Translations under genes and position numbers: made by a program
Part shown: positions 16,321 through 40,541 of the stretch, in pieces
Layout: every line of letters starts with the position of its first letter
Numbering within the stretch: position 1 is the first letter of the stretch
Notes under the pieces: generated by a model
Seen by the model: only the letters and a program-made list of their open reading frames with translations
Databases searched by the model: none
What the model was told of the DNA's origin: nothing
Virus record (IMG/VR): IMGVR_UViG_3300035146_000036
Strand: one strand, 5' to 3'
Length of the DNA: 64,000 nt
Source: a virus

Positions 16321-16354
16321 TAAAAAAATTGATGTTTCACGTGAAACAGAGAGG

Positions 16355-16654: not shown

Positions 16655-16659
16655 TAATT

Positions 16660-17015: not shown

Positions 17016-17022
17016 TGTTTTT

Positions 17023-21600: not shown

Positions 21601-21675
21601 ATACGTCAAACTAGTGTAATGAGTGGTGGTGTGAGTATTCCTGTGACAGGAACTACTACTCCACCACCAAGTTGA
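18601..21675 (+). CDS. Tail tape measure protein
   Basis: 1024 aa, Ala/Gly-rich helical protein with hydrophobic Gly-rich segments; between chaperone candidate and baseplate genes. Confidence 0.75.
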   Translation: MSFLGISLEMAAVDAGMKDGIIKAAKALDDVNKMLIDQDSVIKKIKKENFFEDTEKNAGKASNKVGILSKTFKELGNIGSKSANKIKSSFDKIRNSVMQFNIADMASNVRTLTGETGNLTNSLEATMVSMLQSTKPVAASLNLSGKEMRKFASQAASMAYSMNTSADAVAETMRSIHVANKGATEAMNELGLSTKDWVKVVQTTNVPMSEYTAILGDMTTSWQASPKEAANMIDSLMAIGKAAGTGTGAVKNAKVQLDELGEVFKTLPPSMARTSDEIMSLMQSSARMSGVFREMGDTQEEAITKANTVARMFAEQDVAIRKALNIGDDRALMDNPLLKYLMRLGIGFDSARKIIETGSRDVVAGMKMVNNVYARFGTDVSPQVQRALSGLSGALGEGAAGLSYLATNTKQGTAALDKMAKMAVDGSGALKKFGKDAYSSGLTLQETYDRAKESFDTTVRSIARQNVRNLVGKQIAGMREAGKEIKELGSDKTWGPWVNALSQFRQMGISGVFASMAEYTGVGAKNAAKFGSKIGLVFDTVSQFGSELAPIMHMLGMAGPLAPLIAAGGIGALLFMDDSSVRQILGPFYKIFNDLKNKAAKIWDYFIGIWDNKVVPRIKVFWKYDMKPAMIDFWNEDFIPFLKENIPKLGMAIWDGIKWAWNKLGEMTGTTGQAGVIGGAMLAGFGPGMVGAGTQAGIAFLKAVASHPTAAGATGLAGLAAYAGWKMAESIFGPKSVSNAIAEAEVIAGGSADKFGMYKLAWQRKPEEMAGQLGRLRAALKAEKESWFPDSDDVKILEKAISLLTDAQSELILDKTESNVEKYTLGGKTTAEQFINGLTSGLEEGRQSVDDGLDFIADGMIAHSPIKSGPLAGEGESNAAYRGGYFTMEQFALGITDSTDIIRRAIETTLNDSVILTIDTYAAKMRDLAKQKMFLASVAKAMVKDLGGNIETSIDSESDINVKKNFEAAMNLPGLASVVLAVSNEGAQTRKLLKRILEENIRQTSVMSGGVSIPVTGTTTPPPS

Positions 21676-23398: not shown

Positions 23399-24345
23399 AA
23401 TGGATTGAATGGCTTAGGGATTATCTTGCAGATGTTACGCATGGTCTAGAGAGGTTCTGCGGTAGATATTATGGTAGTTATTTGGGAAGGGTAATTGATA
23501 TAGCAGACCCTGATAACAGGGGAAGGATAAGAGCTACATGTCCAGCTATAAATATGCCAAAGGCTGAAGATGTTCCAGGTGGATATTGGATATTACCATG
23601 TATGCCAGGATTAGGAGAGGATTCTGATGGAAAAATGACTGGTATATTTCATCCTCCTGAAGAAGGTTCTCTTGTGTGGCTTCAGTTTGAATTTGGTGAC
23701 CCAAGAAAACCTTTATATATGGGAGGATTTTTAACAACTAGAAATACTTCAGATACATTTTTTTCTGATGATGCTGAAAAAAAAGGGCCATCAAAGAGAG
23801 GTATAAGGACAAAAGCTGGTCATTTTTTAAGATTCAATGATGACCCAGATAAGTTGGAAATTACAATTGCTAGAGGAGATGGTGAAGGAGAGCCAACATC
23901 TCAATTCATAAGTATGACAACAGAAGGTCATACACTGATAACGAATAGTAATGGGTCTTCATTATATATGAATGCCGAAGATAATGAAACTACACTTCAG
24001 ACATTGGATTCTAATGGAAATGTATTATCGATGCTTTTTCTAGGTGATGACAAGATTACTTTGACTACAAAGTCAGGTGGTGCAATAGGTATAGATGGGA
24101 AAGATATTGTGTTAACAGGGGATAATGTTGTTGCAGATGCAAATAAACAATTTTCTGCAAATGCTGGTACTGTAATGCTTGGAAAAGGTGCATCTGAGCC
24201 AGCAATTAGGGGCAATAAGTTTGCTATTGGTTGGGGAATTATGCATCAGCATACTTCTACTGCTCCAGGAAGTCCTACAACACCAGGTGCAACACCTCCT
24301 GTGATGCTTTATAGAGAATTAAGTGAGAATGTTTTTATATCATGA
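23395..24345 (+). CDS. Baseplate central spike (gpV/gp5/VgrG-like OB-fold plus beta-helix)
   Basis: YLGRVIDIADPDNRGRIRATCP...GYWILPCMPGLG...GSLVWLQFEFGDPRKPLYMGG matches the Phage_base_V family pattern. Confidence 0.7.
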   Translation: MKWIEWLRDYLADVTHGLERFCGRYYGSYLGRVIDIADPDNRGRIRATCPAINMPKAEDVPGGYWILPCMPGLGEDSDGKMTGIFHPPEEGSLVWLQFEFGDPRKPLYMGGFLTTRNTSDTFFSDDAEKKGPSKRGIRTKAGHFLRFNDDPDKLEITIARGDGEGEPTSQFISMTTEGHTLITNSNGSSLYMNAEDNETTLQTLDSNGNVLSMLFLGDDKITLTTKSGGAIGIDGKDIVLTGDNVVADANKQFSANAGTVMLGKGASEPAIRGNKFAIGWGIMHQHTSTAPGSPTTPGATPPVMLYRELSENVFIS

Positions 24346-25161: not shown

Positions 25162-27342
25162 ATGTCAGATGACCAATATAGTCCGTTAGTTCCAGACCAA
25201 ACGTTTTTGAATGAAGTGAAATATGCTGCTCGAGATTTTGTTTCTATTGCTGATGATTTGCTTCGTAGATTAAAAATAGAATATGGTACCGTATATAATG
25301 ATTATGCAAGTACTTCTCAGGGGATAATGTTGAGAGACCTTGTGGCATGGGCTTATGCTGCTTTAACATGGTATTTGGATAGGACTGCATCAGATTGTTT
25401 TTTATCTACAGCAAGGACCAGAAGCGCAGTAGAACGACTTGTAGAACAAATTGCATATAAGATGACACCTGCTTCTCCTGCTGGAACTACGTTGGTTTTG
25501 ACTTTTCCTGGTGGAACTACATCAGGATTCATAATGAAAGATCGGTGGAGATTTCAAGGACCAAATGGATTGACTTTTGAGTCTTATGCTAAAATAACGC
25601 AATCATCTGCTTTGTCAGAAGGTGCAACAATAAATGTAGATGTAAGGCAAGGTGATACTAGGATATTAACTTATACTGCAAATGGTAGTAAGAATCAGAC
25701 ATATAGATTAGCCAATATTTTAGAAGATCGTTTTCTTGCTGTAGACGCTACTGAAGTATGGGTTGATGGTCAGTTGTGGGAAGAAAAGGATTTTTTAGAG
25801 TATGAAAAAACGAATCATTATGAGATTAGTTATTTAGCTAATCCACCGATTATTAGATTTGGTGATGGATTGGCAGGTAATATACCTGCGTCTGGTTCTG
25901 AGATAAAAATTCGTTTTTTGATTATTGATGGTAAAAATGGTAATGTAAGAAGTAATACAATACAATCTTCTATTGATACTTTGACGATAAATGGGCAACC
26001 TGTTTTATTTGATGTTAACAATACAAATCGTGCTGTAGGTGGATTAGATCCAGAAGATGCTGAGAAAGCAAAACGTTTGGCTCCTTCAAGTTTTGCTGCT
26101 CGTGGTGCTGCAATAACACAACAAGATTACGAGGCTCTTTCAAATAGTTTTGTAGATCCAGCATATGGGGCAGTTGCAAAAGCATATGCTGTTAATCCAA
26201 GGAGTTTTTATAGTGATACAGTATTTAATGCATTAGTTGTTGATATTCAAACGTTGCTTTTATCTTTTTCTAGTATTATTGGAGCAATGGAAGAGTCAGT
26301 AATTATTGATGCTGCATCTTTGACAACAGCTTTAGCATCAATAGAGACATCAGTGGATGAATTAGACACATTAAGACAACAAATATATAGTTGGTCTGGG
26401 GCTGCTTCTGCTGGTGCTTCTTCTGCTAGAAGTTCAATGAATGAGGCTTCTTCTAGAAGTACATTGGCTATGAATTTAGCTAATGATGCAATAAATACTG
26501 GTGAAGCATTAGTTCAATATATTCAGGATGGAAATACTAATATTGATCATATTTTGGCAGAAGTTAATAATATGCTTGTAGATATAACGGGTTCTCATCA
26601 GGAATCTACACAAGCTGCAAGTGTCGCATCTTCTGCATCTTCTGCTATAGAAAATGTTGTATTGTTAAATTCTAATAATATAATGAATGCTACTAATACA
26701 GATGGGGCTGTAGATATAGAAGTTAATAATATAGTTTCTCAAATATCTTCTTTGGCTATTCGTATTAGTAATATTCAAAGTACTTTATCTTCTATAGATG
26801 GTAATTTTGATTCATTATCTTCTCAAATTAATTTAATTATGTCAGATATGAAAGATAGAATAGGCGTTTTATTTTCTGATGATTGTTTGTCAAATTATGT
26901 TCAGGTTCCTATTTTGTCATTAGATTTAGATGGTAATTATTCTTCTCCATCTATTGGATTGAGGTCTGCGTTACAAGAATATTTGGATGGAATAAAAGAA
27001 GTTACACAAGTTGTAGAGGTTGTTGATGGAATTTCTGTTCTTATTTTGGCTGACATTTCTATAAAAGTTAAGATTATTGAAGCATATGTTATTTCTGAAG
27101 TTAAATCTCAGATTGAATCTGTTGTTATAAGTCTTTTAAAGGGAAGAGAGTTTAATCAACCATTATATTTGTCTGATTTATATGATATTGTTACAGAATC
27201 TTCGGCTGGGATTAATTATGTGAATATTTCTATAACTGGACCAACTGATTATTTAGTAGATGGAAATCTTATTCCAGATTCAAATCAAGTGATAGTATTG
27301 GGAAGTCTTGTTATAAAAAATGAAATAGGAGAAATATTATAA
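25162..27342 (+). CDS. Baseplate J-like protein (gpJ/gp6 equivalent)
   Basis: Position immediately after gp25/gpW and size; no motif verified. Confidence 0.45.
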   Translation: MSDDQYSPLVPDQTFLNEVKYAARDFVSIADDLLRRLKIEYGTVYNDYASTSQGIMLRDLVAWAYAALTWYLDRTASDCFLSTARTRSAVERLVEQIAYKMTPASPAGTTLVLTFPGGTTSGFIMKDRWRFQGPNGLTFESYAKITQSSALSEGATINVDVRQGDTRILTYTANGSKNQTYRLANILEDRFLAVDATEVWVDGQLWEEKDFLEYEKTNHYEISYLANPPIIRFGDGLAGNIPASGSEIKIRFLIIDGKNGNVRSNTIQSSIDTLTINGQPVLFDVNNTNRAVGGLDPEDAEKAKRLAPSSFAARGAAITQQDYEALSNSFVDPAYGAVAKAYAVNPRSFYSDTVFNALVVDIQTLLLSFSSIIGAMEESVIIDAASLTTALASIETSVDELDTLRQQIYSWSGAASAGASSARSSMNEASSRSTLAMNLANDAINTGEALVQYIQDGNTNIDHILAEVNNMLVDITGSHQESTQAASVASSASSAIENVVLLNSNNIMNATNTDGAVDIEVNNIVSQISSLAIRISNIQSTLSSIDGNFDSLSSQINLIMSDMKDRIGVLFSDDCLSNYVQVPILSLDLDGNYSSPSIGLRSALQEYLDGIKEVTQVVEVVDGISVLILADISIKVKIIEAYVISEVKSQIESVVISLLKGREFNQPLYLSDLYDIVTESSAGINYVNISITGPTDYLVDGNLIPDSNQVIVLGSLVIKNEIGEIL

Positions 27343-30300
27343 TGTCAGAAAGTCCAAGATATAATTGGCCTATTCCACAATGGAATGCTGATTGGCAATC
27401 ATGGCAGCAAAGATTTGAAGATCTTTCAAATGATATTGATTCTACTGTATTTTCAAATATGGAAGGATCTAAGTGTATATTTTATCAGCTTCCAAATGCT
27501 AGAGTTTATGATGATTCAGGTACTTATAAACTTGAGATGCTTTCTGATTTGATTCTTATTTCAAGAACTTATAATATGAAAGTTACGGTTGATTCATCAA
27601 GTGATTTAGTACTGATTCCATATAATTTGATAGGATTAACGTTTACTGCTGGAACTGTGGAAGAAACCACGGTTGAGTTCGAATTATTTAATACAGCACC
27701 AATAGATTCAGACGTTCATATTTTTGGATATGTTACAGCGGATTATTCAATAAATTGGTTTAATGGTTCAGTATTTGCTGATGGTGAAGATGCTAGACAA
27801 ATTTTTTCTTTTTTGGCATCTACAGGTGCTGATACAAATAAAGTAAAAGTTACCAATGCTGATACTACAGCTGATTTTCTAAGTAGTAAAATAACTTCTG
27901 GTTCAAATATTACGATTAATGTTTTAAATCCAGGTGGTGATGAAGAATTAGAAATAGTTGCAACTAGTGGGTATTGGAGTAGAAATGCAGTTCCAGCATA
28001 TGTGTATCCAACTACAGATACTGATGCTATGAGAATAGGAGATGGTAGTGTTTCAGTTCCAGGTATTGCATCGAAAACGTATGTTGATACAGGGTTTAGA
28101 TGGGATGTAACAGAATCTCCATCTAGTAGTAATGAAGATAGTATATATTTTGTTTCAGAGGGTAATGATGTTGCGTCAGTTTATTATGATAATACTACTT
28201 CAGAACAAGTTATTTCTTTTGTTGATGAAGCTACAAATGATAATGCAACAATAAGAAAAAGAATGGTACCAGGTACAGCATCAGATTTAGTTGTTTTTAA
28301 TATTGAAGTAGAAGGAGGAGTAAATACAGATGGTTCTCAGTTGATTTTAAAATCAATGACTAATGATGATACATCTCATCTTCAGACTTCTACTGTTGAA
28401 ATTGAAAGTATTGCTTCAGGATTGGATGCTTTGTCTGTATTAAAAGCATCAACTGGAGTAGGTGCTACATCTGGTACTGCTGAAGTACAAATTTTAGCAG
28501 AGGGATATAATGATGTAAATTGTTTAATTAGAGCTCAAGATTTGGCTGCACATACAACATCGATAGTGATATTATCTGATGGTGGGTCAGTATCGGATGT
28601 TTCGATTAAAGCAGAAGGAACTGTTCAATCAAATGCAGAATTTGGTACAGACCCAAGTACTGGTTATGCATATACAGATTTGTTTGCTATATCAACAGAT
28701 TCGTTATCAAGTATGGAGATAATTTCACAATCTGGTGGTGGTGGAAATATTGATGCTGAACTTGATATAAAAGCATTAAATAATGGTGCAGATGCATATG
28801 ATGATGCAACTGTAGTTGTTAGAAGTTATGCTGTTGCAGGTTATGCATCTGTAGTAATTGGTGCTCCAAGTACTGAGGATGTTATATTATCTGTAAGTGA
28901 TTCTGTATTTTTTAAATTTGCAGATGTAGATAAACTAGAGGTTTATCATTCTACTGATACAGTAGTGTTTAGTACCTTTGAACCAGATGATACGTTATCT
29001 GTATTAGAATTTAGTCATAAGAAGTATGCTGGAACAAGTGAAGCTGCGATTGAATTTAATGTTATTGGTGACACTGGAACAGGTGGGTCTAGATTTACTA
29101 TAAATAGTTATAATTATGAAACTACAGATAAAGCAGATATTGAGATTTATGCTAATGGTGGTACTCCCAAAATTGATATTGTAGCAACTTCTACAGGTAG
29201 TGGATTGGCAGAAGTAAATTTGTATGCTGATGGTAATGTAACTGGAGATGGAGAAGTAGATATATTAGCTACAAGTGCAACATCAAATGCTTTTGTTCAT
29301 ATTGCTGCAGAGGGAAATGTTAGTGGAATAGTGTATGTTGGATCGATATCAACAGATATAGTTGCTTTTACTGATGTATCTTCATCTGCTATTCATGGTG
29401 TATGGTCTGAAGATGCAATTCCTTTTTCTATTAGTCCATCAGAATGGACAACGTACAATTCAAATTTTGGTGAAGTATCATTATTGGCTGCATTAAATGT
29501 GGCATATACTTCAGGTGGTGGTAGTGTATCTGAGCCTGCTGGACAGATTGTGTATGGTACAGGAGCTGGTGTTGATTCCTCTTCTATATTTATGTGGGAT
29601 ACTGTAAATAGTGTTCTTATAGTAGGTCATAATGGTACTAGACAAGCTACATCTTTAGATAGTAAGGCTGAAATTCAAGATGGAATAACATCAGGAAAGT
29701 GGACAACTACATTAGCAGATTCATCAGCGTTATCATTTATAAGAAGTTATAATGTTTCTGTAGGTTCTCATACTGCTGTTCCTGCAGATGGTTATCTTGG
29801 TGAGATTAATTTTTATGGATCTACAGGAAGTGCATGGGCTGAAGGTGCTCGTATTATAGTTTCTGCTGCTAGTACTTTTTCTGGAACAAATTCTGGGTCT
29901 GATTTAAGTTTTTATATAACAGAAAAAACTACTACTACTCCAGCATTGGCTATGCGTCTTGATTCTAATGGATATCTTTCGATTACGGATTCATCTTCTG
30001 CTGCAGCAACGGCTGCTCTTGAGATATTTGGCAATGGAGATAATACATATGATAATATATTAGCTTTGTCGTTTTTTAGTGATTATACAGGTGAGCGACC
30101 GATGGTTAGGATAAGAAAATCTCAGACTGATACTATTGGGAATCATGGTGCTGTTTCTTATGGGTCGGCATTAGGTGAGATAGTTTTTCAAGCATCAAAT
30201 GGAACATCGTTTGCAAGTGCTCTTGAACTTAGGACTGTTGCTACAAGTCCATGGTCTGGGTCATCAGAAGGAGCAAAACTAGAATTATGGCAATCTCTTG

Positions 30301-31325
30301 CTGGAGATACTGGTATTGAAAGAGCGGTTGTAATTTATAGGGGTGGTGAATTATTAACAGCGAGTGGATATTCAACAGTACACATGCATATAGGTGATGA
30401 TGGTGATCATGAATCACTTGTTATAAGAGCTAATAATTTATTTGTATTTCAAGATGTTAATACTTTAGATGATTCTTATATGGGTGGTAATCTTGTTGTT
30501 GGTGGTGGAAATGATTTTGATGGGTCATATTTGTCTGATTCTATAATTGTTGGTGATTCTAATAGTTTCACTACTTCTTCAGGATTGATTTATAGAGGAA
30601 ATTCTAATACTATATCATCAGTTCAAGATTCATTATTATTGTTGACTAGTACGAATCCAACTAATATTACAAAATCTATTGCTATTTGTACTAGTTCTAC
30701 TTTTCAAAACTGTAGTAATACAATTGCTGTTGGTTCTGCGCATGTTTGTCAAAACAGTAGTTATAGTTTAATGCTTGGATATGGATGTTATAGTGATACG
30801 CATCCTGGTGTAGTTGTTAGAGGGCAAAGGTCAAAGGCTGATTTTGATTATGGTGAATTTTTTACAGCTGGAAGACTCGATGGTTCTACATTAGGTAGTT
30901 CTCAAGCATTTAAAGCTATTCCAATGATGTATAGAACTACTGATACTACACCAACGGTTCTTACTACTACTGGTTCTGGAACTACTTCTCCTTTAGTGAT
31001 AGAAGAAGAATATCTATATTGTTTTGAATGTCGTTTAGTTGGTACAGCACATGGGGCTACTGTTGATGCAATTGAGATTTGGGTTTGGGATGTTGAGGTG
31101 TGGAGGAATTCTGTGAATGGTATACAATTTCATGAAACAGAGAGATATCATATTGCTTTAAGTGGTGGAGTTGGGAATGCAAGTTGGCAAAAAAATGATA
31201 CGGATCATACATTAGAACTTGAAGTTCAAGGTACAGGTAGTGAACTTCTTGAAGTTGATTGGTTTGCTCATATATGGGGAGGAGTTAAGCTTAAAACTAC
31301 TTATGATGAAATATATGGTGGGTAG
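27342..31325 (+). CDS. Very large baseplate/tail fibre protein (1327 aa)
   Basis: Overlaps the gpJ-like stop; Ser/Thr/Gly-rich beta composition; position of gpI/fibre. Confidence 0.5.
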   Translation: MSESPRYNWPIPQWNADWQSWQQRFEDLSNDIDSTVFSNMEGSKCIFYQLPNARVYDDSGTYKLEMLSDLILISRTYNMKVTVDSSSDLVLIPYNLIGLTFTAGTVEETTVEFELFNTAPIDSDVHIFGYVTADYSINWFNGSVFADGEDARQIFSFLASTGADTNKVKVTNADTTADFLSSKITSGSNITINVLNPGGDEELEIVATSGYWSRNAVPAYVYPTTDTDAMRIGDGSVSVPGIASKTYVDTGFRWDVTESPSSSNEDSIYFVSEGNDVASVYYDNTTSEQVISFVDEATNDNATIRKRMVPGTASDLVVFNIEVEGGVNTDGSQLILKSMTNDDTSHLQTSTVEIESIASGLDALSVLKASTGVGATSGTAEVQILAEGYNDVNCLIRAQDLAAHTTSIVILSDGGSVSDVSIKAEGTVQSNAEFGTDPSTGYAYTDLFAISTDSLSSMEIISQSGGGGNIDAELDIKALNNGADAYDDATVVVRSYAVAGYASVVIGAPSTEDVILSVSDSVFFKFADVDKLEVYHSTDTVVFSTFEPDDTLSVLEFSHKKYAGTSEAAIEFNVIGDTGTGGSRFTINSYNYETTDKADIEIYANGGTPKIDIVATSTGSGLAEVNLYADGNVTGDGEVDILATSATSNAFVHIAAEGNVSGIVYVGSISTDIVAFTDVSSSAIHGVWSEDAIPFSISPSEWTTYNSNFGEVSLLAALNVAYTSGGGSVSEPAGQIVYGTGAGVDSSSIFMWDTVNSVLIVGHNGTRQATSLDSKAEIQDGITSGKWTTTLADSSALSFIRSYNVSVGSHTAVPADGYLGEINFYGSTGSAWAEGARIIVSAASTFSGTNSGSDLSFYITEKTTTTPALAMRLDSNGYLSITDSSSAAATAALEIFGNGDNTYDNILALSFFSDYTGERPMVRIRKSQTDTIGNHGAVSYGSALGEIVFQASNGTSFASALELRTVATSPWSGSSEGAKLELWQSLAGDTGIERAVVIYRGGELLTASGYSTVHMHIGDDGDHESLVIRANNLFVFQDVNTLDDSYMGGNLVVGGGNDFDGSYLSDSIIVGDSNSFTTSSGLIYRGNSNTISSVQDSLLLLTSTNPTNITKSIAICTSSTFQNCSNTIAVGSAHVCQNSSYSLMLGYGCYSDTHPGVVVRGQRSKADFDYGEFFTAGRLDGSTLGSSQAFKAIPMMYRTTDTTPTVLTTTGSGTTSPLVIEEEYLYCFECRLVGTAHGATVDAIEIWVWDVEVWRNSVNGIQFHETERYHIALSGGVGNASWQKNDTDHTLELEVQGTGSELLEVDWFAHIWGGVKLKTTYDEIYGG

Positions 31326-31346
31326 TAATAATATGAGAGGTATTTG

Positions 31347-32225
31347 ATGAATATATATTATATAAATTTGGACCGTTCAGAAGATAGAAGAGAAAAAATG
31401 GAGAAATCTTTTGAGCATGAAAAATTAATAAGGATATCCGCTATAGATGGCATGGAATGGGCTATTGAAGATACGTTTGATACTAGAGGGTTTCCTGTAT
31501 GGAATTTAGAGTATCGTGATAAATTTGTTAATGAAGGTATATTATTTGAAAATAGTATTCTTCCACCAACTCATGTTGCGTGTAATTTAAGTCATAGAAA
31601 GGCTATTCAGGAGTTTTTGAATACTGATGATGAATGGGCAATTATTATGGAGGATGATGTTGAAAAGTCAAAAGCTTATTTTAAAGATGGAGAATTGATA
31701 GAAAAAAAAGTAGTTATTCCTAGTGATGCTGATATGTTTTATTTATGTGGGACAAGACCAGATAGACGGATATACGTTTTTGATGATGGTCAAGTTAGAA
31801 AAACTAGGACATTGATGGGATATTGTATATCAAGAAGAGGTGCTGAATTATTTTTAAAATCAACAATACCAATGATGTGGCTTTCTGATTATCAATTTCC
31901 TGTTTGTTGTTTTGATAGTATGTTAAATAATATAAGAGAGATTAAAATAAGAGATAGAAAAATAGTTTTTAAAAAGCGTATATTATTTAAAGAGAACAAA
32001 GATGATAAAGGAAATATTATAAGGAAGAAAAAGGAATGTGTTTCATTTTCAATTCCAAATAAAGATAACTATAGGACTATAAAACCAATTTTTCCAAAGG
32101 AAATAGAAAGTGAAGAAAAGATAAAAGCTTTTGCTGATAAAAAAGATGGTTTAATAAGACATTCTATTTTGTCTAAGCAATCATTACTTGGTAATTATGA
32201 AGGACATGGGAAAAGATTTTATTGA
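31347..32225 (+). CDS. Glycosyltransferase family 25 (LPS-type)
   Basis: IYYINLDRSEDRREKM...ISAIDG and VACNLSHRKAIQEF...WAIIMEDDVE match GT25 signature motifs. Confidence 0.75.
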   Translation: MNIYYINLDRSEDRREKMEKSFEHEKLIRISAIDGMEWAIEDTFDTRGFPVWNLEYRDKFVNEGILFENSILPPTHVACNLSHRKAIQEFLNTDDEWAIIMEDDVEKSKAYFKDGELIEKKVVIPSDADMFYLCGTRPDRRIYVFDDGQVRKTRTLMGYCISRRGAELFLKSTIPMMWLSDYQFPVCCFDSMLNNIREIKIRDRKIVFKKRILFKENKDDKGNIIRKKKECVSFSIPNKDNYRTIKPIFPKEIESEEKIKAFADKKDGLIRHSILSKQSLLGNYEGHGKRFY

Positions 32226-32228
32226 TAG

Positions 32229-32795
32229 ATGAAGAAAGAAGAGGGTTATAAAGGTATGAAATATCGAGATGTTGATGCGTTGTTGAAGATTTTTAAAAAG
32301 CTTGCTAAGACAGTTGAAGTTATTCCAAGGTGGGAAAATGCTAAACGTGTAAAAGTATTAAAGGAGATTATTGGACCTATTGATATAGCGCGTGAAGTAA
32401 CTGATGAGATGAAATCTTATTATGAGAAACAAGATAAGATATTTGAAAAACATGGTACGCCAGTTTCTAGTCAAGGTGGAATGGGTTACAGGATTGAAAA
32501 TTGGGGACCAGTTAATGAAGAAATTGCTATTTTAAAAGAAGAGAATAAAGATCTTTTAGAGAAGGAAAGAGAAAGAAAAAAAGATATAGAACTTTTACTT
32601 GATAAGGATGTTGAAGTTAATATTGAACCAATTGATTATGAATGGTGTGGAGATTTAATTGATGGGAATGATCTTGTTGTATTAATGGATTTTAATCTTG
32701 TAAATGAACCTATGTCTGATGAAGAAGCTGAAGAAGCTGAAGATGCAAAACTTAAAAATATTAGGAATCAGAAAAAAAGAGCAAGAAAGAAATAA
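32229..32795 (+). CDS. Hypothetical K/E-rich protein
   Basis: ORF. Confidence 0.4.
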   Translation: MKKEEGYKGMKYRDVDALLKIFKKLAKTVEVIPRWENAKRVKVLKEIIGPIDIAREVTDEMKSYYEKQDKIFEKHGTPVSSQGGMGYRIENWGPVNEEIAILKEENKDLLEKERERKKDIELLLDKDVEVNIEPIDYEWCGDLIDGNDLVVLMDFNLVNEPMSDEEAEEAEDAKLKNIRNQKKRARKK

Positions 32796-32813
32796 TAGGG
32801 AGTAAAGTAAAAA

Positions 32814-35078
32814 ATGTCTCTAGCTTCTAGTAGTATAAATAAGTCTAGGATAAAGTTTCGTTTTGCTGAAAGATATGCTAGTGATGCAGCAAATATTCAG
32901 ACAGGAGTGAATAGTCCTGGTGTTTATAGAGGTGCAGAAGTATTAGAATCTGAAGGTGGAGCAGATACTTCTTTTAGAATTGAGCTCGGACCAGAAAATG
33001 ATTCATTGATTCTTCATCAGAATATTACAAATGGAATGGCCACAGTTGTTAGATTGGAATCAAGAGTCATATTAGATATGAGTTCTCAAACATGGCCTAT
33101 TCCTTCAGATGTTGAATGGGTTGTTTATATGGTTGTTAATTATCAGGATTTTCAGGATACGACTGGAGCTTTTGAGGTTGATATTCCATCTAATGTTCCT
33201 GATGATGCAGTTATTCTTGCTCATATATTGATGCAATCTGGTGATATTTCTATATTGCAATCAAGAATTAGGACTGATGGTAGTTATAGGGATAAGGTTT
33301 TAGGTAAGAAAGGGATACTTGTAAGAAGAAAAATTGAAAAAACTACTAGTAGTGCAACAAGATTTCAACTTACAGGTAGGATATCATTTGTTGATAAAAC
33401 GTATAATTGGGCTGGGAAAGTTAGACTTGTAGTCGGAATAAGTAATGATACAGGGATGATTGGAAGTAATGGTGGTGCGATATCTGCTGGGTCATGGTAC
33501 ACACAAGAAATTGGTGGTAGTGCAATAACTGTATCAGATTTGGATGAAGATGGTTGTTATACTGATCCATGGATTTCTATGTCATTTCTTGATGTTTCTG
33601 AATCTAATTGGACTGGAACGTTTGCTGTTGTTTATTGGGAATTTGTAGAGTTTGAAAATCTTGATACTGATGATGCTGTTGCTACAGATGTAAATCCTCA
33701 TGCAAACAATGTTTATTGTAAAGAAAATACAACATATACTGATGCACAATTATCTAATGGTTCATTAACTAGTCAGATTAGTAGTTTATTGTATCATATA
33801 CAACAGAGGATTAAGGATATTCATCCAGATTCTGTTTCATCTTCATGGACTTTATTATGGAGGTCAAACAATGTTATATTTGATTCTAATGTAGATGAAA
33901 AAACTGTATCGGTTTATTTTTCTAGTGAAGGTATTCTTGTATGCAAGGGTGGGTATATGAGTGGTACCAATGATTTTCATATAAATGAAATTGGTTATTG
34001 TTCTGTAGTATTTATAGATGATGACAAAATTTATAAAATGGTGAGGTCATTTATAAGTGCTCCTACTTCTGTAGATATACGCTATGATGGAGATTGGGAT
34101 TCTTGGGATAGATATGGAGCAGGCCTTTTTACATTTGGAACAAGTGGTGTTCAACGTTTATTTAATTTTTTTGAGTATGGAACTGCAAAAATGGCAGCAT
34201 TGCCTAATGAAGGAGGAAGAGATTTTCGTTTAGAAATTCTTCGTTTGGCAGAACATGTTCGTGTTTATTATACAAATCCTGATGATGGTGCATCTTTTGA
34301 AATTGCATGTGGTTGTTATTGGGATGACTCCGTTAATTTATGGAAAAGAGTAGGTACACAAGAATTTAATAGTGTATTATATTCTTTTACTAGGTCTGGA
34401 TTTGTTTTTTTTAATAAAAATCGTAATGATGCAAATTGGACAACTGGTTGGAGTTCAACGGATTTTTCTGTATCATGGTCATTTTCAGATGATACGAGTT
34501 TTTCACCGATTAAGTTAGTTGGTTCAATAAAAGAAGAATGGGATGTAGATTTTAGGGTTGTTTTATCAAATGATTTGATAAAGGCAATGGGAAAATTTGT
34601 AGGATGGGACGGTGTTGAGAGAGGAAAAAAACTTTTTTATAGAGGTGAAAGATTAATTGTACCTTCAACTGGCAATTTTTCAGTAGTAAAGAAAAGTGGT
34701 CTTAATGCGGATATAGTAGTAAGTGCTCCGACTAGTTGGGGATTTACCGCTGGAGGTCTTATATATTTAGTTGATTCTTTAGAAGGTGCAGCTATTTATA
34801 CTCTTGTTAGTGATAGAATAAATTTAATTGGATGGAATTTAGGAATAAATCCTGGTTCTCATATTTGTTTGAGAGGTGATGGAGTTAATAAATCATGGTT
34901 GGTTAAAGAAGTTTATGAGTTGGGTGGTGCAACAAATAATACATCATGTATCGTAGAAACTAATAGTGGTGTTGATAATGTTCCAACATCTGTAGGAACG
35001 AAAAAAGCGTATTATGTACCAAATTTTGATTTAGGAAGTGAAGTAACAGCTGTTTATACAATAAAATTGTTTGGATGA
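32814..35078 (+). CDS. Large structural protein (754 aa), fibre-like
   Basis: ORF with GGGAG RBS; beta-rich composition. Confidence 0.45.
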   Translation: MSLASSSINKSRIKFRFAERYASDAANIQTGVNSPGVYRGAEVLESEGGADTSFRIELGPENDSLILHQNITNGMATVVRLESRVILDMSSQTWPIPSDVEWVVYMVVNYQDFQDTTGAFEVDIPSNVPDDAVILAHILMQSGDISILQSRIRTDGSYRDKVLGKKGILVRRKIEKTTSSATRFQLTGRISFVDKTYNWAGKVRLVVGISNDTGMIGSNGGAISAGSWYTQEIGGSAITVSDLDEDGCYTDPWISMSFLDVSESNWTGTFAVVYWEFVEFENLDTDDAVATDVNPHANNVYCKENTTYTDAQLSNGSLTSQISSLLYHIQQRIKDIHPDSVSSSWTLLWRSNNVIFDSNVDEKTVSVYFSSEGILVCKGGYMSGTNDFHINEIGYCSVVFIDDDKIYKMVRSFISAPTSVDIRYDGDWDSWDRYGAGLFTFGTSGVQRLFNFFEYGTAKMAALPNEGGRDFRLEILRLAEHVRVYYTNPDDGASFEIACGCYWDDSVNLWKRVGTQEFNSVLYSFTRSGFVFFNKNRNDANWTTGWSSTDFSVSWSFSDDTSFSPIKLVGSIKEEWDVDFRVVLSNDLIKAMGKFVGWDGVERGKKLFYRGERLIVPSTGNFSVVKKSGLNADIVVSAPTSWGFTAGGLIYLVDSLEGAAIYTLVSDRINLIGWNLGINPGSHICLRGDGVNKSWLVKEVYELGGATNNTSCIVETNSGVDNVPTSVGTKKAYYVPNFDLGSEVTAVYTIKLFG

Positions 35079-35084
35079 TAAAAT

Positions 35085-37544
35085 ATGACAACGACTTTAA
35101 ATTATCCAAGTGGGACTGGTTTTTTTGGGAGGGGATATTGGGGAAGAAAAGTATTTTGGTTAAATGTACCTTCTCAATGGAGGAATTTAGACCAGTATAA
35201 TTATTTGCAAATGTTGCTTAATACATGGGGGGATGTAGGTGAGAATTTAATTGAATATATTAAACTTCTGCCTAAACAAAGAGACCCATATGAAGTTAGG
35301 ACGTTAAATACTATAGTAAAATGGTTTTATGTAACAGAAGCATTTAATTATTATGATAAAGATAAAGGAAATGTAATTAGATTAATAGGTGAGAAAAATC
35401 CAGATAGATTACCAGGATCTAGTTTGTCATCAGTGCCAAGTACTGATGAAGATGTAATGTCGGAACAATTTCCTTGGTATCCGTATGAGCCATTAGCTGA
35501 TGTAGGTAAATTTTGGCAAGTTAAATGGATGGATGCGAAGTATGAAGTTGTAAATGTAAGGGCTAGAAATTTTGACCAAGTTGAAATATATAATCAATAC
35601 ACTTCGTTGGCAAATGAGATATGGGTAAAGGGTGGAGATTTAACGTTATTATTTGATTATTTAACAAATAGGTCATGGGATAAGTCTATAGAAGATGATC
35701 TAATTCAAGGTACTGTAGAAATAGGTATTACTGATGGGTCTCAGAGACCATATGTTGAATTTCCTGTTACTCCAATAAGGCTTGAGAATAGGTGGTCTGA
35801 TGTTGTTCCTCCATCAACTTTGATTGAGTCATCTACGTTAAGAATTTATATTCCATTACAGGGTGGTGGATATAGAATACTTTATGATTTGCCAATAAGT
35901 GAAAATGAAGGGACATTACATGCAGAAAGTGGAGGAATAATAGGTGGTGCTGTTGTTGGAAATGTTAATTATTTATCTGGTAAATTAGATTTTGATTTAT
36001 CTATATTGTCTGAATTTTCATCACAGACGGCACTAGATATAAAAGCAAAATATCAAGTTAGGGGATATTATATGAAATTTAATGCGCCACCTAATATTGA
36101 TTATTTGGCGCATGATTACGGATTTAATAATGACGAGAATGACCCAGAAGATGTTCAGAGGTCATCTATAGCTAATGTAACAAAATTTTGGGGTATTAAA
36201 TCAACACAAGATTCGTATCGTATTAGAGGGGAAATAAGTCTTTTTGATGTTTATATGCAAGGTTTGTATAAAATTTGTAGTGCTGAACTTGCGTCTAAAC
36301 TTCCAAGCAATTCTGTTTATGAAGTAGGAACAACTTTTTATACTGATGTTATGCCAACATTTATACGGTATGACCATATTTCTGTAGATGAACTATTTTA
36401 TGACTATGATTCTGGTGGAAGTCCGATATGGGTTACTATAATAGATAATATGCTTATTGCATTGGATTCTTCTAGATGGGACGGCATGACAATAGGTCAG
36501 GCATATGCTGTAGATGTGACTCAGGGATATTATGCTCCAATATCAGAAGTTAATGCAGTCTTACGTGGACCCGCAACTGTTCAGTCTGTTACGCAGATTA
36601 GCCAAGAAGAGCTTGAAGAAAGAAGATGGGAGAATGGGTATAGATATGAAATAGAGATGCGTAGATGTCAGTATGAAGCGTTTAATATGATATTAGATTC
36701 TAATGGTATACAGACGAAGGAATTGTTTGCTTTATCTGTATATGATTATAATCCTGTTGGTCCAGAATATGGTATTCCACCTAATGTAAATGATGTTTAT
36801 TATTATATTGATCGTGAAGATACAACTTGGACTCTTACATCTTCTCCATCATCAGACCCAAAAGAAGATATTGGAGTTTGGACTGTAGATATTAGATTTG
36901 GAGTTGGTGTTTCTTCTCCGATACAAGTATCTGATGATATTGCTGTTAGATATTTTCCGTTATTTGATGATATGGATTGTTGTTATTGTAGAGCTAGTAG
37001 TATGCGTGCTTATATTGACGTTATAGAAGAAGCATATGATTTTTATGATACATATGAAAAAATAGAGTATGCAATTACAAGATTAAAAATGAAATTGAGT
37101 GACCTTTTGCCTATTCATACTAGAATTATTGAATGGGAGATTACAAGACGATTTCAAGAAGAATTTTATGGTGTTGAAAATGGTGCTACAGTTATTCATA
37201 CATTAACTGGAGAGCAATTTTTAAATAATACAAAAGTTTTATTATCAGTTAAATATCGTGGTGATAGTGATTCTGGAACACCTAATACAGATTTGGATTT
37301 TCGTGTATATAGTGAAGATACCGGTACTGTTTGGGAATTATTAAATTGGAATCCAGTTACTCCTGCTGGTGATAATGAAACATGGGTTGATGTTGTTACA
37401 GATGAAGAAATAATTCTTCCTGATGACCCATCAGACCCTGGTCCACCAATAGTTCCATATTATGCATCGGTTCGTGCTATTGCTGGTTCTGCGTCTTTAT
37501 ATGGTGATGTTATGTGGATTTTTAAGATTACTACTAAGGAGTAA
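35085..37544 (+). CDS. Large structural protein (819 aa)
   Basis: ORF. Confidence 0.45.
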   Translation: MTTTLNYPSGTGFFGRGYWGRKVFWLNVPSQWRNLDQYNYLQMLLNTWGDVGENLIEYIKLLPKQRDPYEVRTLNTIVKWFYVTEAFNYYDKDKGNVIRLIGEKNPDRLPGSSLSSVPSTDEDVMSEQFPWYPYEPLADVGKFWQVKWMDAKYEVVNVRARNFDQVEIYNQYTSLANEIWVKGGDLTLLFDYLTNRSWDKSIEDDLIQGTVEIGITDGSQRPYVEFPVTPIRLENRWSDVVPPSTLIESSTLRIYIPLQGGGYRILYDLPISENEGTLHAESGGIIGGAVVGNVNYLSGKLDFDLSILSEFSSQTALDIKAKYQVRGYYMKFNAPPNIDYLAHDYGFNNDENDPEDVQRSSIANVTKFWGIKSTQDSYRIRGEISLFDVYMQGLYKICSAELASKLPSNSVYEVGTTFYTDVMPTFIRYDHISVDELFYDYDSGGSPIWVTIIDNMLIALDSSRWDGMTIGQAYAVDVTQGYYAPISEVNAVLRGPATVQSVTQISQEELEERRWENGYRYEIEMRRCQYEAFNMILDSNGIQTKELFALSVYDYNPVGPEYGIPPNVNDVYYYIDREDTTWTLTSSPSSDPKEDIGVWTVDIRFGVGVSSPIQVSDDIAVRYFPLFDDMDCCYCRASSMRAYIDVIEEAYDFYDTYEKIEYAITRLKMKLSDLLPIHTRIIEWEITRRFQEEFYGVENGATVIHTLTGEQFLNNTKVLLSVKYRGDSDSGTPNTDLDFRVYSEDTGTVWELLNWNPVTPAGDNETWVDVVTDEEIILPDDPSDPGPPIVPYYASVRAIAGSASLYGDVMWIFKITTKE

Positions 37545-37546: not shown

Positions 37547-38335
37547 ATGGCTATTGGATTAGTAGTAAGTATTGTTGACGCAATTATGAATGGACCAGAA
37601 GGTGGTCAATATGCATCTTTAACAATTGCTGGAGTTGACCCTACTGACCCATCTAAAATATACAAAGCTGGTATTGATCCTGGAGATGATTTTGATTTTA
37701 GTGAAAGAGCACTTCAGTATTGGCCGGAAACCATACAGGATAGTATTGATATAGGATGGTCTTTGAAAGATATAGGTGGTGCTTCACACGCTCTTGCTCA
37801 ATGGTCATCAAATAATGGAAGAACGATTAGTTTTGATATTCAACTATCTAGATTTATGATGCCAGTCAAAACTAGAACGGCTAAAGAACAATTTTTGTCA
37901 TATTCAGAACCTGGGTCAAATAGATTAGAAGAAAGAGACAATAGACCATATAATGTTGATATTAAAGAACAGATTCATTTTTTGAGAGGATTTTGTTATC
38001 CAACATATAAAAGTATTGATAATGTAAAGGTGGCATATCCTCCACCGATTGTAATTTTAAATATTCCAAATTTTGGTTTAAATGAATCTGGAGGAGATGC
38101 TATTTTTTGTATAATGACTGGGTGTGATGTAACATATACATTAGCATTTAGAGATGGAACACCAAGAAGAGCAACAGTTTCTGTTACTTTTAGACAGATT
38201 GTACAAACAGCAAAGGGTATTTTGTTTAAAGGCTTTAAAGATGCTCCTTCGAAATATTCATTTGATGATAATGAAGAATTAGGAAAGAGTGCTGGGAGGG
38301 AAGTTAATGGAATAGACCCATCGATGGTGAGATGA
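37547..38335 (+). CDS. Hypothetical protein
   Basis: ORF with AAGGAG RBS. Confidence 0.45.
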   Translation: MAIGLVVSIVDAIMNGPEGGQYASLTIAGVDPTDPSKIYKAGIDPGDDFDFSERALQYWPETIQDSIDIGWSLKDIGGASHALAQWSSNNGRTISFDIQLSRFMMPVKTRTAKEQFLSYSEPGSNRLEERDNRPYNVDIKEQIHFLRGFCYPTYKSIDNVKVAYPPPIVILNIPNFGLNESGGDAIFCIMTGCDVTYTLAFRDGTPRRATVSVTFRQIVQTAKGILFKGFKDAPSKYSFDDNEELGKSAGREVNGIDPSMVR

Positions 38336-38347: not shown

Positions 38348-38575
38348 ATGGTTATGAAGGCTATATCAAAAAGTAACAAACTTTCTGAAAATATTTCTAT
38401 TGATGAAAAGTATACTGGTGATGATACAGATGGTTTTGTTATGGTAATATTTCCAATTGATACGTGGAATAAAGTTCAGGAGATGAGCAAAAAGATAGGA
38501 ATTGAGACAGGAGAAGTTATTTCAGTTGCACTTGAGATGATGAAAGATGAGATGAAGAAGAAGGAAAGTAGATAG
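38348..38575 (+). CDS. Hypothetical small protein
   Basis: ORF. Confidence 0.35.
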   Translation: MVMKAISKSNKLSENISIDEKYTGDDTDGFVMVIFPIDTWNKVQEMSKKIGIETGEVISVALEMMKDEMKKKESR

Positions 38576-39397
38576 ATGAGTGGTATAAAGCGGTTTTTAG
38601 TTAGGAAATTTTGGAGAGAAAGAGGATTGGGTTGTGAACAAAATCCATATGATAAAAGAGATTTTGTTTATAGTTATAAAACTAAAAAAGGTGTTTTTCC
38701 TGAGTTTGAATCATTAGAACAATATTCAGAAGTTGTTGATCAATTAAATACCAATTCATGTGTAGGGAATGCTGTAGCTGGTGCGATAAGAATTCTTGAG
38801 AACAAAAAACGACACAATGAATCAAATTTTAAATATGGTTATCCATCTAGAATGTTTTTGTATTGGAATTCAAGAGTTCAACATGATGTTATCCCGTTAA
38901 AAGATGATGGAACATATATTAGGGCTTGTTGTAAAGGTTTGGTTAAATATGGTGTTCCAGATGAGATTAATTGGCCATTTATAAAGCGAGATATTAATAG
39001 AAAACCTGTTTTTAAAACATGGATGAGAGCAGATTCACGTAAAAATGGTAAATATTTTGCTATTTTTGAATCTGATAAAAACAGGATTGATGCAATAAGG
39101 ACAGCAATATGTGATGGTTATCCTGTAGTTTTTGGTACTAAGATTTCAAAGTCATTTATGCCTGCGGTCGGTAGAGAAGTAATATATAGGCCAGATGATT
39201 CTGATAATATTGTTGGAAATCATGCTATGGTTATTGTTGGATATAGGATAGTTGGAAGTGATATTCAATTTAGAGTTATGAATAGTTGGGGTAAATATTG
39301 GCGTGATTATGGGTATTGTTGGTTAGATTCTGAATATATTACATGGAATGAAACTAGAGATTTTACGATTATTAAAGGATGGGGAATGTTAAGATGA
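38576..39397 (+). CDS. Papain-like cysteine peptidase (C1A family)
   Basis: LNTNSCVGNAVAGAIRILE (active-site Cys region), GNHAMVIVGY (His), NSWGKYWRDYGYCWL (Asn/Trp) match papain Q-C-H-N architecture. Confidence 0.75.
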   Translation: MSGIKRFLVRKFWRERGLGCEQNPYDKRDFVYSYKTKKGVFPEFESLEQYSEVVDQLNTNSCVGNAVAGAIRILENKKRHNESNFKYGYPSRMFLYWNSRVQHDVIPLKDDGTYIRACCKGLVKYGVPDEINWPFIKRDINRKPVFKTWMRADSRKNGKYFAIFESDKNRIDAIRTAICDGYPVVFGTKISKSFMPAVGREVIYRPDDSDNIVGNHAMVIVGYRIVGSDIQFRVMNSWGKYWRDYGYCWLDSEYITWNETRDFTIIKGWGMLR

Positions 39398-39756
39398 GAA
39401 GTTTTGTTTTTGTTGGGTCAATGATGTTTGTTTCATGGTGTAGTCCAAGTCCTGTTATTCCTGAGTTACCTGTTCATGATAGTGAGATTGATACGTTTAA
39501 TCCTGTTCCAGAAGCTTTTGATAGTGATGAAAGGAGAGATAAGACGCCTTGTGAGAGAGCGTGTGATAATTTAAGGAATATGGGTTGTGATGGCTCTGAG
39601 GGGTCTCCAGGACCAGATGAGGAGTTTGGTAATAGTGATGATGTGGCTTGTGAAGATGTTTGCGAAAGGATAATGGATGAAGGTGATTTTTCTATAGAAC
39701 CAGAATGTGTTGCTAAAGCAAAGAGTTGTGAAGAAGTAGAGGAATGTGGGAAATGA
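39379..39756 (+). CDS. Secreted acidic Cys-rich small protein
   Basis: N-terminal hydrophobic signal-like segment; 10 Cys; acidic. Confidence 0.45.
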   Translation: MGNVKMRSFVFVGSMMFVSWCSPSPVIPELPVHDSEIDTFNPVPEAFDSDERRDKTPCERACDNLRNMGCDGSEGSPGPDEEFGNSDDVACEDVCERIMDEGDFSIEPECVAKAKSCEEVEECGK

Positions 39757-40160
39757 AAACAAGAAAAATTGAATTTATACAATCATGTAGATTTGTGTTG
39801 GTAATTTCAGGGAATGAATATGAGGTGTCAAGGATATCTGGAATTAGTATAGGACACGGAATGGAAAAAGGAGGATGTATATGTAGTAATGTTACAATTG
39901 AATCAGCAATGAAGAAAGATGAAGAAGGTAATCTTTTTAATTCATTATTTTATGTTTTTAAAGAATATTTTAATGGTAATAATTTTGATATAAAATTATA
40001 TTTTATTAATATAAATGGTGGTAAAGAAAATTTTTCATTTTTATTGCAAGGTTGTAAAATGTTAAATTATTTTGTTAATGATATTGATGCTGCTTGTAAT
40101 GGTTGTTTTTTAGAAAGTATTGAAGTTATTCCTAGGGATTTGATATTAAGTAATGAATAG
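39744..40160 (+). CDS. Hypothetical protein
   Basis: ORF. Confidence 0.35.
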   Translation: MWEMKTRKIEFIQSCRFVLVISGNEYEVSRISGISIGHGMEKGGCICSNVTIESAMKKDEEGNLFNSLFYVFKEYFNGNNFDIKLYFININGGKENFSFLLQGCKMLNYFVNDIDAACNGCFLESIEVIPRDLILSNE

Positions 40161-40190: not shown

Positions 40191-40541
40191 ATGAGATTTT
40201 TTGTATTGTTGGTATTAGTTTTGTCGTTGTTTGGGTGTAATAAATCAGTAGTAAGAAACAAATCGGTTTATAGAGAGGAGTTGAATTTTATTGATGCTGC
40301 TTCAGATGAAACTGTTGTGAATGGTAAAGCATTGATAGCAAGTATGTGTGAATGTTCTGAAATTGAAGGTGTAAAAGGGTTTACAACTGCTGAATGTCAG
40401 AATCTTGCTGAAACAGTGCTTGTTGTTGAGGCAAGAGTAAAGTATCATACTAATATGATGAGATTTAATAGTGGCTTGATAGAAGAAAGGCCATCAGAGG
40501 ACCCACCAGAGGTTCCTGATACTAATACGTTGTGTCCATAG
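40191..40541 (+). CDS. Putative lipoprotein
   Basis: MRFFVLLVLVLSLFGC lipobox; AAGGAGGA RBS; palindrome upstream. Confidence 0.55.
   Translation: MRFFVLLVLVLSLFGCNKSVVRNKSVYREELNFIDAASDETVVNGKALIASMCECSEIEGVKGFTTAECQNLAETVLVVEARVKYHTNMMRFNSGLIEERPSEDPPEVPDTNTLCP

Follow-up and report, generated by a model that had tools for sequence, protein, structure and literature searches.

A papain-family cysteine peptidase gene and its overlapping gene for a Cys-rich, lipoprotein-type partner in a contractile-tailed phage

The stretch of viral DNA analysed here (IMG/VR record IMGVR_UViG_3300035146_000036; 64,000 nucleotides, referred to below as the window) carries on its + strand, at exactly 38576-39397, an open reading frame (ORF) of 273 codons which runs from ATG to TGA and encodes a protein of 273 aa. 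This protein had previously been noted, from the sequence alone, as a papain-family (C1A) cysteine peptidase. Its start codon directly abuts the stop of an upstream 75-aa ORF, and a Shine-Dalgarno-like stretch, GAAGGAAAG, lies upstream. At its 3' end the gene overlaps a second, small gene, whose Cys-rich product is called CRP in the following. The two genes and the catalytic codons of the peptidase are:

38576-39397, + strand: xylellain-type C1A cysteine peptidase (Pfam, PDB match, catalytic alignment, AlphaFold2/Foldseek)
38741-38743, + strand: codon of Q56
38759-38761, + strand: codon of C62
39221-39223, + strand: codon of H216
39281-39283, + strand: codon of N236
39287-39289, + strand: codon of W238
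39394-39756, + strand: CRP, a 120-aa lipoprotein-type precursor, the partner gene, overlapping the peptidase stop as ATGA

Among Pfam profiles, PF00112 (Peptidase_C1) matched the peptidase at E 2.3e-7, its 31.5 bits exceeding the gathering score of 20.7, the only other matches being the sub-threshold relatives Peptidase_C1_2 and Peptidase_C39_2, and PHROG 16701 ('peptidase') matched at 1.7e-9. In a sequence search of the PDB the top match was xylellain from Xylella fastidiosa (3OIS_A; 29% identity over query residues 11-267 at E 3e-21), and mite allergens (Der f 1) and cathepsins K and S came next. Residues Q56, C62, H216, N236, S237 and W238 are invariant across alignments of 24 and 48 sequences and share columns with Q19, C25, H159, N175, S176 and W177 of papain. 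The AlphaFold2 model built with 48 homologs (pLDDT 93.4, pTM 0.92) has the two-lobed papain fold with the Gln oxyanion residue and the Asn-Ser-Trp motif present. When this model was compared with the PDB by Foldseek, xylellain was again closest (TM-score 0.80-0.81), the next matches being pro-cathepsins (cathepsins at 0.6-0.73) and Legionella Lpg2622, with a probability of 1.00 for xylellain and the cathepsins. The match to C1A is far beyond chance, and the ORF is, as judged from sequence and model, an intact papain-family (C1A, xylellain-type) cysteine peptidase with a complete Gln-Cys-His-Asn(-Trp) site.

The original prediction had recognised the Q/C, H and N/W regions of such an enzyme, and Pfam, 3OIS, the papain columns and the fold all agree with it. 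It had further set the protein apart from the generic CHAP/NlpC fold. In the profile search Peptidase_C1 passed, while CHAP (PF05257) and NlpC/P60 (PF00877) gave no match even at E<=10, so that a CHAP/NlpC-P60 identity was ruled out; the best match lies with C1 and the catalytic Cys and His are aligned. CHAP and NlpC/P60 lysin domains, which occur in endolysins and virion-associated lysins, share with the peptidase the papain-like fold of clan CA and the Cys-His mechanism, but the full two-lobed C1A architecture and the absence of a profile match separate it from them.

The peptidase resembles xylellain in being a single-domain protein of ~270 aa without an I29 pro-domain, in its catalytic residues and in a homologous N-terminal segment; it differs in being encoded by a phage, and no lipoprotein partner is known for xylellain. 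The segment concerned (RG.G..P.P.D.RD, ~residues 16-29) is conserved and aligns with that of xylellain, its residues G19, D26, R28 and D29 are invariant in the homolog alignment (alignment A4), and it is modelled at pLDDT 80-94. In xylellain this segment reportedly blocks the active site. Tat and Sec signals and transmembrane segments were looked for in the peptidase and none were found, and no cell-wall-binding domain is present.

The start of the CRP gene is most likely the ATG at 39394, which is preceded by an AAGGA...GGGGA stretch, with an alternative upstream ATG at 39379. The predicted product consists of a hydrophobic signal segment ending in Cys, a linker rich in Pro and acidic residues, and a helical domain of ~65 aa, which contains eight conserved Cys and the motif LGCxGxxGSPGxDExxGTxDD. 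Four disulfides are probable in the mature domain. In the structural model of CRP the core helices reach pLDDT 80-92 and the most conserved loop only ~59, which suggests that this loop may be a flexible binding loop. The Cys at the end of the signal segment is invariant in 34 of 34 sequences, and a canonical lipobox is found in about half of the family. In the other half, W, R, K or H takes the place of G, A or S at lipobox position -1 (alignment A5); the CRP of the window belongs here (VSWC, 39394-39441, with W at -1), and its closer relatives have R, K or H. The non-canonical lipobox points either to an unusual specificity of the host signal peptidase II or to some other way of anchoring.

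No Pfam, PHROG, NCBIfam or PADLOC model matches CRP, no structural relative could be detected, and it has neither sequence nor fold match to the inhibitor families staphostatin, Spi, cystatin, chagasin and thyropin. An exhaustive profile search returned 1,085 representative clusters at E<=1e-3, of which 213 remain at a cut-off of E<=1e-10; nearly all are stand-alone proteins of 86-168 aa, so CRP is by sequence a sizeable undescribed family. A tblastn search of two CRP types against 50,697 GenBank phage records gave no match, and there is therefore no cultured model system. NCBIfam likewise named none of the module or neighbouring proteins.

The relation between the two genes was examined by comparing the window with numbered homolog loci and contigs (L001 and so on). 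CRP stands beside the peptidase in ~21 distinct phage lineages with differing flanking genes, which are non-homologous between lineages that carry the pair, and the G+C content of these loci spans 0.34-0.66. The CRP hidden Markov model (HMM) detects CRP on the same strand downstream of the peptidase, usually overlapping it, in the window and in L001, L003, L005, L006, L007, L012, L013, L014, L015, L095, L096, L097 and L105; the CRP of L006 had been missed by the gene caller and was recovered by the HMM. The junction is the ATGA overlap in the window, and 4-nt overlaps or a 2-nt gap in L001, L003, L005 and L012, an arrangement by which the two genes are predicted to be translationally coupled. 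In four phages of 233-407 kb (L098, L099, L101, L102) CRP is instead encoded on the opposite strand, divergently and just upstream of the peptidase. The lipoboxes of these CRPs are textbook ones (LVGC, LLGC, SIGC, SGC), and all huge-phage members of the family have a canonical lipobox. Beside the peptidases of L113, L114 and L115 a small ORF agrees with a CRP cluster in length and contig.

The degree of linkage can be seen from two relatives of the window. The 188-kb contig L001, with a peptidase of 57% identity, is largely collinear with the window, whereas the 181-kb contig L003, with a peptidase of 40% identity, shares only two genes with it in this region, namely the peptidase and CRP. Pairwise identities of peptidase and CRP are correlated (Mantel r 0.86; none of 5000 permutations was as high). 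In a neighbour-joining tree the CRP-linked peptidases form one clade, with only L106 inside it that could not be scored (its contig ends at the 3' end of the peptidase and it was left out of CRP scoring), but deep bootstrap values are weak and strict monophyly of the CRP-linked peptidases was recovered in 4 of 100 replicates, mostly owing to L106 and L104. Xylellain groups in the same tree with the CRP-less phage homologs of FLC9, LR756511 and L008, not with the CRP-linked clade. The HMM found no CRP in L008, FLC9, LR756511, L103 and L104, even at E<=10, and none beside ~78 bacterial peptidase homologs. By this pattern of occurrence peptidase and CRP form a phage-restricted two-gene unit that is inherited together. 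The downstream Cys-rich ORF, which the original prediction had listed but had not connected with the enzyme, is by the same signs an obligate co-inherited partner of the peptidase. An adjacency that persists although both the orientation and the phage backbone have changed is a classic sign that two genes function as a pair.

It had also been noted that C1A peptidases are unusual in phages. This holds for cultured phages, as tblastn found peptidase homologs in only 2 of the 50,697 GenBank phage records, both at ~30% identity: a 595-kb uncultured phage (LR756511) and the 322-kb Burkholderia phage FLC9. In FLC9 the homolog is gp163, annotated as 'hypothetical protein' and encoded on the opposite strand by a lone, moron-like gene without CRP. 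On the other hand, PHROG 16701 already exists, BFVD contains several Caudovirales Peptidase_C1 proteins, some of them named for peptidoglycan-binding or cell-wall-binding domains, and according to a 2023 report (PMC10380794) Mimiviridae on the one hand and Myoviridae and Siphoviridae on the other independently acquired short C1A peptidases of the xylellain type. The enzyme is therefore rare in cultured phages, yet tailed phages were already known to carry it, and it is not novel in itself. In the metagenome protein collection 73 homolog clusters were found, nearly all of 245-340 aa, and 67 of them carry a precomputed PF00112 match.

A scan of bacterial genomes with a profile from an 11-sequence alignment yielded many peptidase homologs of 30-36% identity, which are multidomain proteins of 410-880 aa, mostly without a signal. 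These relatives (L016-L093) make up a separate family, which shares the conserved motif ...RADGSERKVSGY...LPxKVDLR at the N-terminal end, is extended at the C terminus by a long uncharacterised region and is found widely among Myxococcota, Methylococcales, Cytophagales, Beijerinckiaceae, Verrucomicrobiota and cyanobacteria. As a different, long multidomain subfamily without CRP they were uninformative as a guide to function and were set aside. The contig L014 (CAYUTF010000016.1, 53 kb), binned in a metagenome-assembled genome of an 'uncultured archaeon', is almost certainly of phage origin and mis-binned, since it encodes a 74%-identical peptidase with an adjoining CRP in surroundings that are alike in the size and order of the genes.

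The commonest position of the pair is the distal end of a tail, baseplate or fibre module. It is found there in the window and L014, in L001 and L115, in L114 (after Baseplate_J and four fibre-sized genes), in L003 (between large Cys-rich proteins), in L006 (after a beta-helix tailspike-like protein) and in L007 and L013 (after Laminin_G_3 fibre-like proteins); the pair of L013 also lies next to a lysogeny module, a temperate context. In L012 and L096 a tight cassette is formed in the order 87-aa lipoprotein, peptidase, CRP and Amidase_2 endolysin, followed in L012 by a coiled-coil protein with an N-terminal transmembrane (TM) segment. The Mu-like L005 has the pair behind genes for a holin-like protein with two TM segments, a coiled-coil protein with an N-terminal TM segment and a protein with a C-terminal TM segment, with an Amidase_2+PG_binding_1 gene 3.5 kb upstream, while an SNF2 helicase gene precedes the pair in L113, likewise Mu-like. 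In huge phages (L098, L101 and L102, contigs of 286-407 kb) the strand opposite the peptidase carries a peptide deformylase gene at a distance of 0.7-1.6 kb, and the neighbourhood contains further auxiliary genes such as AdoMet decarboxylase and dCTP deaminase. SLT genes are found close to the pair in L007 and to the peptidase in L008, and no holin, spanin or lysin gene is near the pair in the window, L001, L114 or L115. When 88 neighbouring genes from 9 further loci were scanned for Pfam and PHROG enrichment, there were only 2 Amidase_2 matches, and mainly auxiliary metabolic genes of huge phages were seen. The association with lysis is therefore real in some lineages but not general. The pair behaves like a mobile two-gene cassette that settles in the usual accessory places, behind tail fibres, within or close to lysis genes or in auxiliary islands.

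The lipoprotein upstream of the peptidase in L012 and L096 belongs to a second uncharacterised family, of 86-88 aa with a canonical lipobox and two further conserved Cys, which lies directly upstream of the peptidase in L006 (7748-8014), L012 (2497-2763), L013 (6621-6881), L015 (3168-3416) and L096 (~5693-5944). In these five lineages lipoprotein, peptidase and CRP make up a three-gene cassette. In the phage-like contig L003 an IS605 OrfB/TnpB (Cas12f-like) gene is inserted among the large tail-like genes beside the pair; this gene and a RelB/ParE-type toxin-antitoxin pair account for L003 2218-2761 (toxin-antitoxin) and 15923-17152 (TnpB).

The whole 64-kb window is phage-like, transcribed from the + strand and of ~33% G+C, and it derives from a contractile-tailed phage. 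Since an identical CRP protein occurs on contigs of up to 173 kb, the genome is at least 173 kb long. Apart from two gp19-type tube proteins, gp25, gp15 and a T4_baseplate domain, its recognisable genes and the ORFs around the pair include:

9908-12703, + strand: tail sheath
17566-18393, + strand: baseplate hub
18601-21675, + strand: tape measure
23395-24345, + strand: gp5/V-type OB-fold spike, OB domain only, without the lysozyme domain
25162-27342, + strand: gp6-like wedge
31344-32225, + strand: GT25 glycosyltransferase (PF01755, lipopolysaccharide-biosynthesis type; PHROG 'glucosyltransferase')
37547-38335, + strand: tail/baseplate protein of the CIS_tube family (PF19266); no structural gene can be recognised between it and the peptidase
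38348-38575, + strand: 75-aa acidic ORF between the CIS_tube-family gene and the peptidase, without TM segment or family match
39744-40160, + strand: 138-aa ORF with 6 Cys, without signal
40191-40541, + strand: 116-aa lipoprotein with canonical lipobox LFGC and 5 Cys

The peptidase had been placed at the end of a tail-fibre block. It does follow a tail/baseplate module, but the large proteins encoded at 27342-37544 have no family match and their identity as fibres is undemonstrated, so the label is plausible but unproven. The run of exported, Cys-rich and lipoprotein ORFs that had been described downstream is real. Within it, the 116-aa lipoprotein is the second exported protein of the block and is conserved in L001 (55% identity), its membership in the module being uncertain. 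The 138-aa ORF is found only in the closest relatives (L009-L011 and L014) and is a lineage-specific filler between CRP and the lipoprotein gene. For the 75-aa ORF, BLASTP gives a conserved counterpart in L001, and L014 and L115 have gene calls of about its size in the corresponding place; it is an uncertain member of the module. No terminator-like site was found on the + strand between 38046 and 42735, and no match to lysozyme, amidase, transglycosylase, CHAP, M15 or holin families was obtained at E<=1e-4 in the whole window.

Several other features of the window were recorded. The GT25 gene sits within the block of baseplate and large tail proteins and has no BLASTP counterpart in the otherwise largely collinear L001. 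A perfect palindrome of ~16 bp, (A/G)CGAACTCGAGTTCG(C/T), is present in 10 copies against 0.01 expected by chance (6583, 8696, 15319, 18575, 24698, 40160, 43245, 53492, 57066 and 60489). Most copies lie in short gaps between + strand genes, for instance just before the tape-measure gene, and one falls between the 39744-40160 ORF and the lipoprotein gene that starts at 40191. The palindrome probably serves as a regulatory site specific to the phage or forms an RNA stem-loop. The window further contains a cluster of three tRNAs (Met-CAT, Thr-TGT and Ile-TAT; 62471-62993), a 962-aa protein (57105-59993) combining P22_AR_N, Bro-N and Ant-type anti-repressor domains, and three ORFs for pentapeptide-repeat proteins (best E 2e-80).

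The pair can be compared with several known systems. In staphopain-staphostatin, SpeB-Spi and Bfp-Bfi, as here, the gene of a papain-fold protease lies directly beside a co-transcribed small gene (~100-140 aa). It has been reported that in Bacteroides fragilis clan-CA (Bfp) protease genes adjoin genes of specific inhibitors (Bfi), some of them on a prophage or a conjugative transposon, and that the Bfi inhibitors are predicted periplasmic proteins or lipoproteins (PMC2873492). The proteases of those pairs belong to families C47 and C10, whereas the one described here is C1A; their inhibitors are lipocalin-like beta-barrels or propeptide mimics, whereas CRP, whose inhibitory activity is putative, is a helical domain with four predicted disulfides. 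The topology of the staphostatin system is moreover reversed, as here the protease has no export signal and the partner is exported. Type VI effectors with their immunity proteins (Tae/Tai, Tse1/Tsi1) combine a papain-fold cysteine hydrolase, contractile delivery and a periplasmic or lipoprotein immunity gene directly downstream, often overlapping. These effectors are however bacterial amidases of NlpC/P60- or CHAP-like type, and no homology to the pair was detected.

A further likeness is to small exported phage proteins which neutralise the phage's own envelope-acting virion component in infected cells. The periplasmic T4 protein Spackle inhibits the gp5 tail lysozyme and acts in superinfection exclusion (PMC7677548), and the T5 outer-membrane lipoprotein Llp is encoded beside the gene of the receptor-binding protein, of which it is the functional counterpart (PMC9586334). 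No sequence or fold similarity connects these proteins with the pair, Spackle is not encoded beside gene 5, and gp5 is a lysozyme, whereas the enzyme here is a protease whose association with the virion is putative. The C1A enzymes of eukaryotic viruses (baculovirus V-cath and giant-virus cathepsins) are of the same Pfam family and were likewise acquired horizontally, but they are mostly cathepsin B/F/L-type proteins of eukaryote origin with signal peptides and pro-domains, and without a lipoprotein partner. Rz1-type o-spanins resemble CRP as small phage outer-membrane lipoproteins with periplasmic Cys that are sometimes found near endolysin genes. The CRP gene, however, is neither paired with nor embedded in an i-spanin gene, and its product is a folded, conserved 8-Cys domain. 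Genes for coiled-coil proteins with an N-terminal TM segment occur only in L005, L012 and L013 and do not adjoin CRP in canonical spanin order. An o-spanin identity was ruled out by gene order and domain character, the upstream gene being that of a soluble peptidase.

The reading tentatively put first is that of an envelope-directed protease without a signal, paired with a periplasmic lipoprotein inhibitor; as a full scenario its chance is put at clearly below even. The peptidase would be made in the cytoplasm late in infection and be kept quiet there by its conserved N-terminal segment, as in xylellain, and it would act outside the cytoplasm on protein or peptide targets of the envelope. The envelope is proposed as the site of action because CRP would fold and act only outside the cytoplasm, in the periplasm or at the outer membrane. 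The enzyme would have to be brought there by the entering virion or pass through holin lesions during lysis. In this phage it would most likely be carried by, or delivered with, the tail and act locally during entry, because it is the last gene of a baseplate/tail operon and the gp5-like spike has no lysozyme domain. CRP would be its cognate tight-binding inhibitor, small, resistant to proteolysis and knotted by disulfides, with the flexible GSPGxDE loop exposed, which would shield the envelope of an infected cell or a lysogen and keep out related superinfecting phages. The pair would then be a protease counterpart of the T4 gp5 lysozyme with Spackle, built on the genetic logic of staphopain-staphostatin and Bfp-Bfi. 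An inhibitor or immunity role of CRP is preferred because clan-CA protease genes repeatedly adjoin specific inhibitor genes, and because a multi-disulfide domain with a conserved flexible loop resembles typical protease inhibitors, which are small multi-disulfide domains with such a loop. It is also preferred since the divergent arrangement in huge phages permits separate timing of the two genes, and since exclusion proteins that neutralise a phage's own entry apparatus exist (T4 Spackle, T5 Llp).

The main alternative, considered unlikely, is an accessory lysis enzyme. The peptidase would then accumulate in the cytoplasm, as the absence of a signal peptide, typical of endolysins, would allow, reach the periplasm via holin lesions and cut either peptide cross-links of peptidoglycan or protein tethers between the outer membrane and the wall, with CRP and the other adjoining lipoproteins serving as outer-membrane anchor, activator or spanin-like partner, not as inhibitor. 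The Amidase_2 endolysin cassette of L012, seen again in L096, the holin-like, coiled-coil and Amidase_2+PG_binding_1 genes upstream of the pair in L005 and the SLT genes in L007 and L008 point in this direction, as do the lack of any other muralytic domain in the window and the names of BFVD structural relatives (peptidoglycan-binding-like, N-acetylmuramidase, Cu-amine-oxidase of the cell-wall-binding type and mycobacteriophage Lysin A). However, L005, L007, L012 and L096 already have a conventional lysin, and a lysin lies within 4 kb in only ~4-5 of the ~21 lineages, an enrichment that is modest, as tail genes are often followed by lysis cassettes anyway. The pair has no holin or i-spanin-like gene near it in the window and L001, CRP is not preceded by an i-spanin gene, its folded four-disulfide domain would be atypical for an o-spanin, and C1A enzymes are not known to cleave the D-amino-acid-containing stems of peptidoglycan. 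Rather improbable is a cytoplasmic protease for host takeover or anti-defence, with CRP as an unrelated exclusion lipoprotein travelling along. It would suit a peptidase without export signal whose bacterial relatives are mostly signal-less and multidomain, the anti-defence genes nearby (an Acb2/Tad1-hairpin gene in L005, Acb5 in L008), the pairs among non-structural auxiliary genes of huge phages and the existence of CRP-less phage homologs such as the lone FLC9 gp163. Left unexplained are the retention of CRP beside the peptidase throughout the clade despite changes of gene order and backbone, and the tightly correlated divergence of the two proteins; nor was any PADLOC or other defence-related match obtained. 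Membership in a defence system was itself ruled out, none of the 6 module proteins having a PADLOC match.

A morphogenetic protease, processing tail-fibre, baseplate or other virion proteins during assembly, is very unlikely; of the three roles that the original prediction had suggested (tail-associated lysin, protease for fibre maturation, secreted effector), fibre maturation has the least support. The peptidase does close tail/baseplate modules, co-oriented with the structural genes and with no + strand terminator-like site in between, but the upstream structural genes differ completely between lineages in which the peptidase is conserved, and the pair stands away from structural genes in L113 and in the huge phages (L098-L102). 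A periplasmic lipoprotein partner would have no role in assembly in the cytoplasm, and the known phage maturation proteases belong to families other than C1A. Hardly probable at all is an effector of lysogenic conversion, whose targets after secretion would be the environment, competitors or a eukaryotic host, while CRP would shield the surface of the producer as proposed for Bfp/Bfi. The prophage-borne Bfp/Bfi precedent and the temperate context of L013, beside its lysogeny module, speak for it; against it stand the missing secretion signal of the peptidase, the presence of the pair in large phages without recognisable lysogeny genes nearby (the window and the 230-407 kb phages) and the samples, which appear to be environmental metagenomes with no specific host association.

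No function has so far been assigned to phage C1A peptidases, and the new element is the CRP partner: an obligate lipoprotein partner of a phage C1A peptidase appears not to have been described previously. That the pair is a new, mobile, phage-specific effector-immunity module, composed of a tail-delivered or lysis-released protease and a lipoprotein inhibitor of novel fold, is possible though doubtful. If CRP is an inhibitor, it would represent a large new family of small disulfide-rich cysteine-protease inhibitors (at least 1,085 clusters), useful as reagents or scaffolds, and a new mechanism of superinfection exclusion or self-protection; T4 gp5-Spackle would then have its first counterpart based on a protease. 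Should the pair instead act in lysis, it would add a proteolytic step to the lysis of Gram-negative hosts by phages and represent a novel means by which a protease detaches the outer membrane. Though the finding is not a startling one, it brings to light a family with more than 1,000 unannotated clusters and gives an orphan class of phage genes a concrete hypothesis. The pairing makes this hypothesis simple and testable, and the genes concerned occur in phages that vary widely in size, in lifestyle and in the G+C content of their hosts (33-66%).

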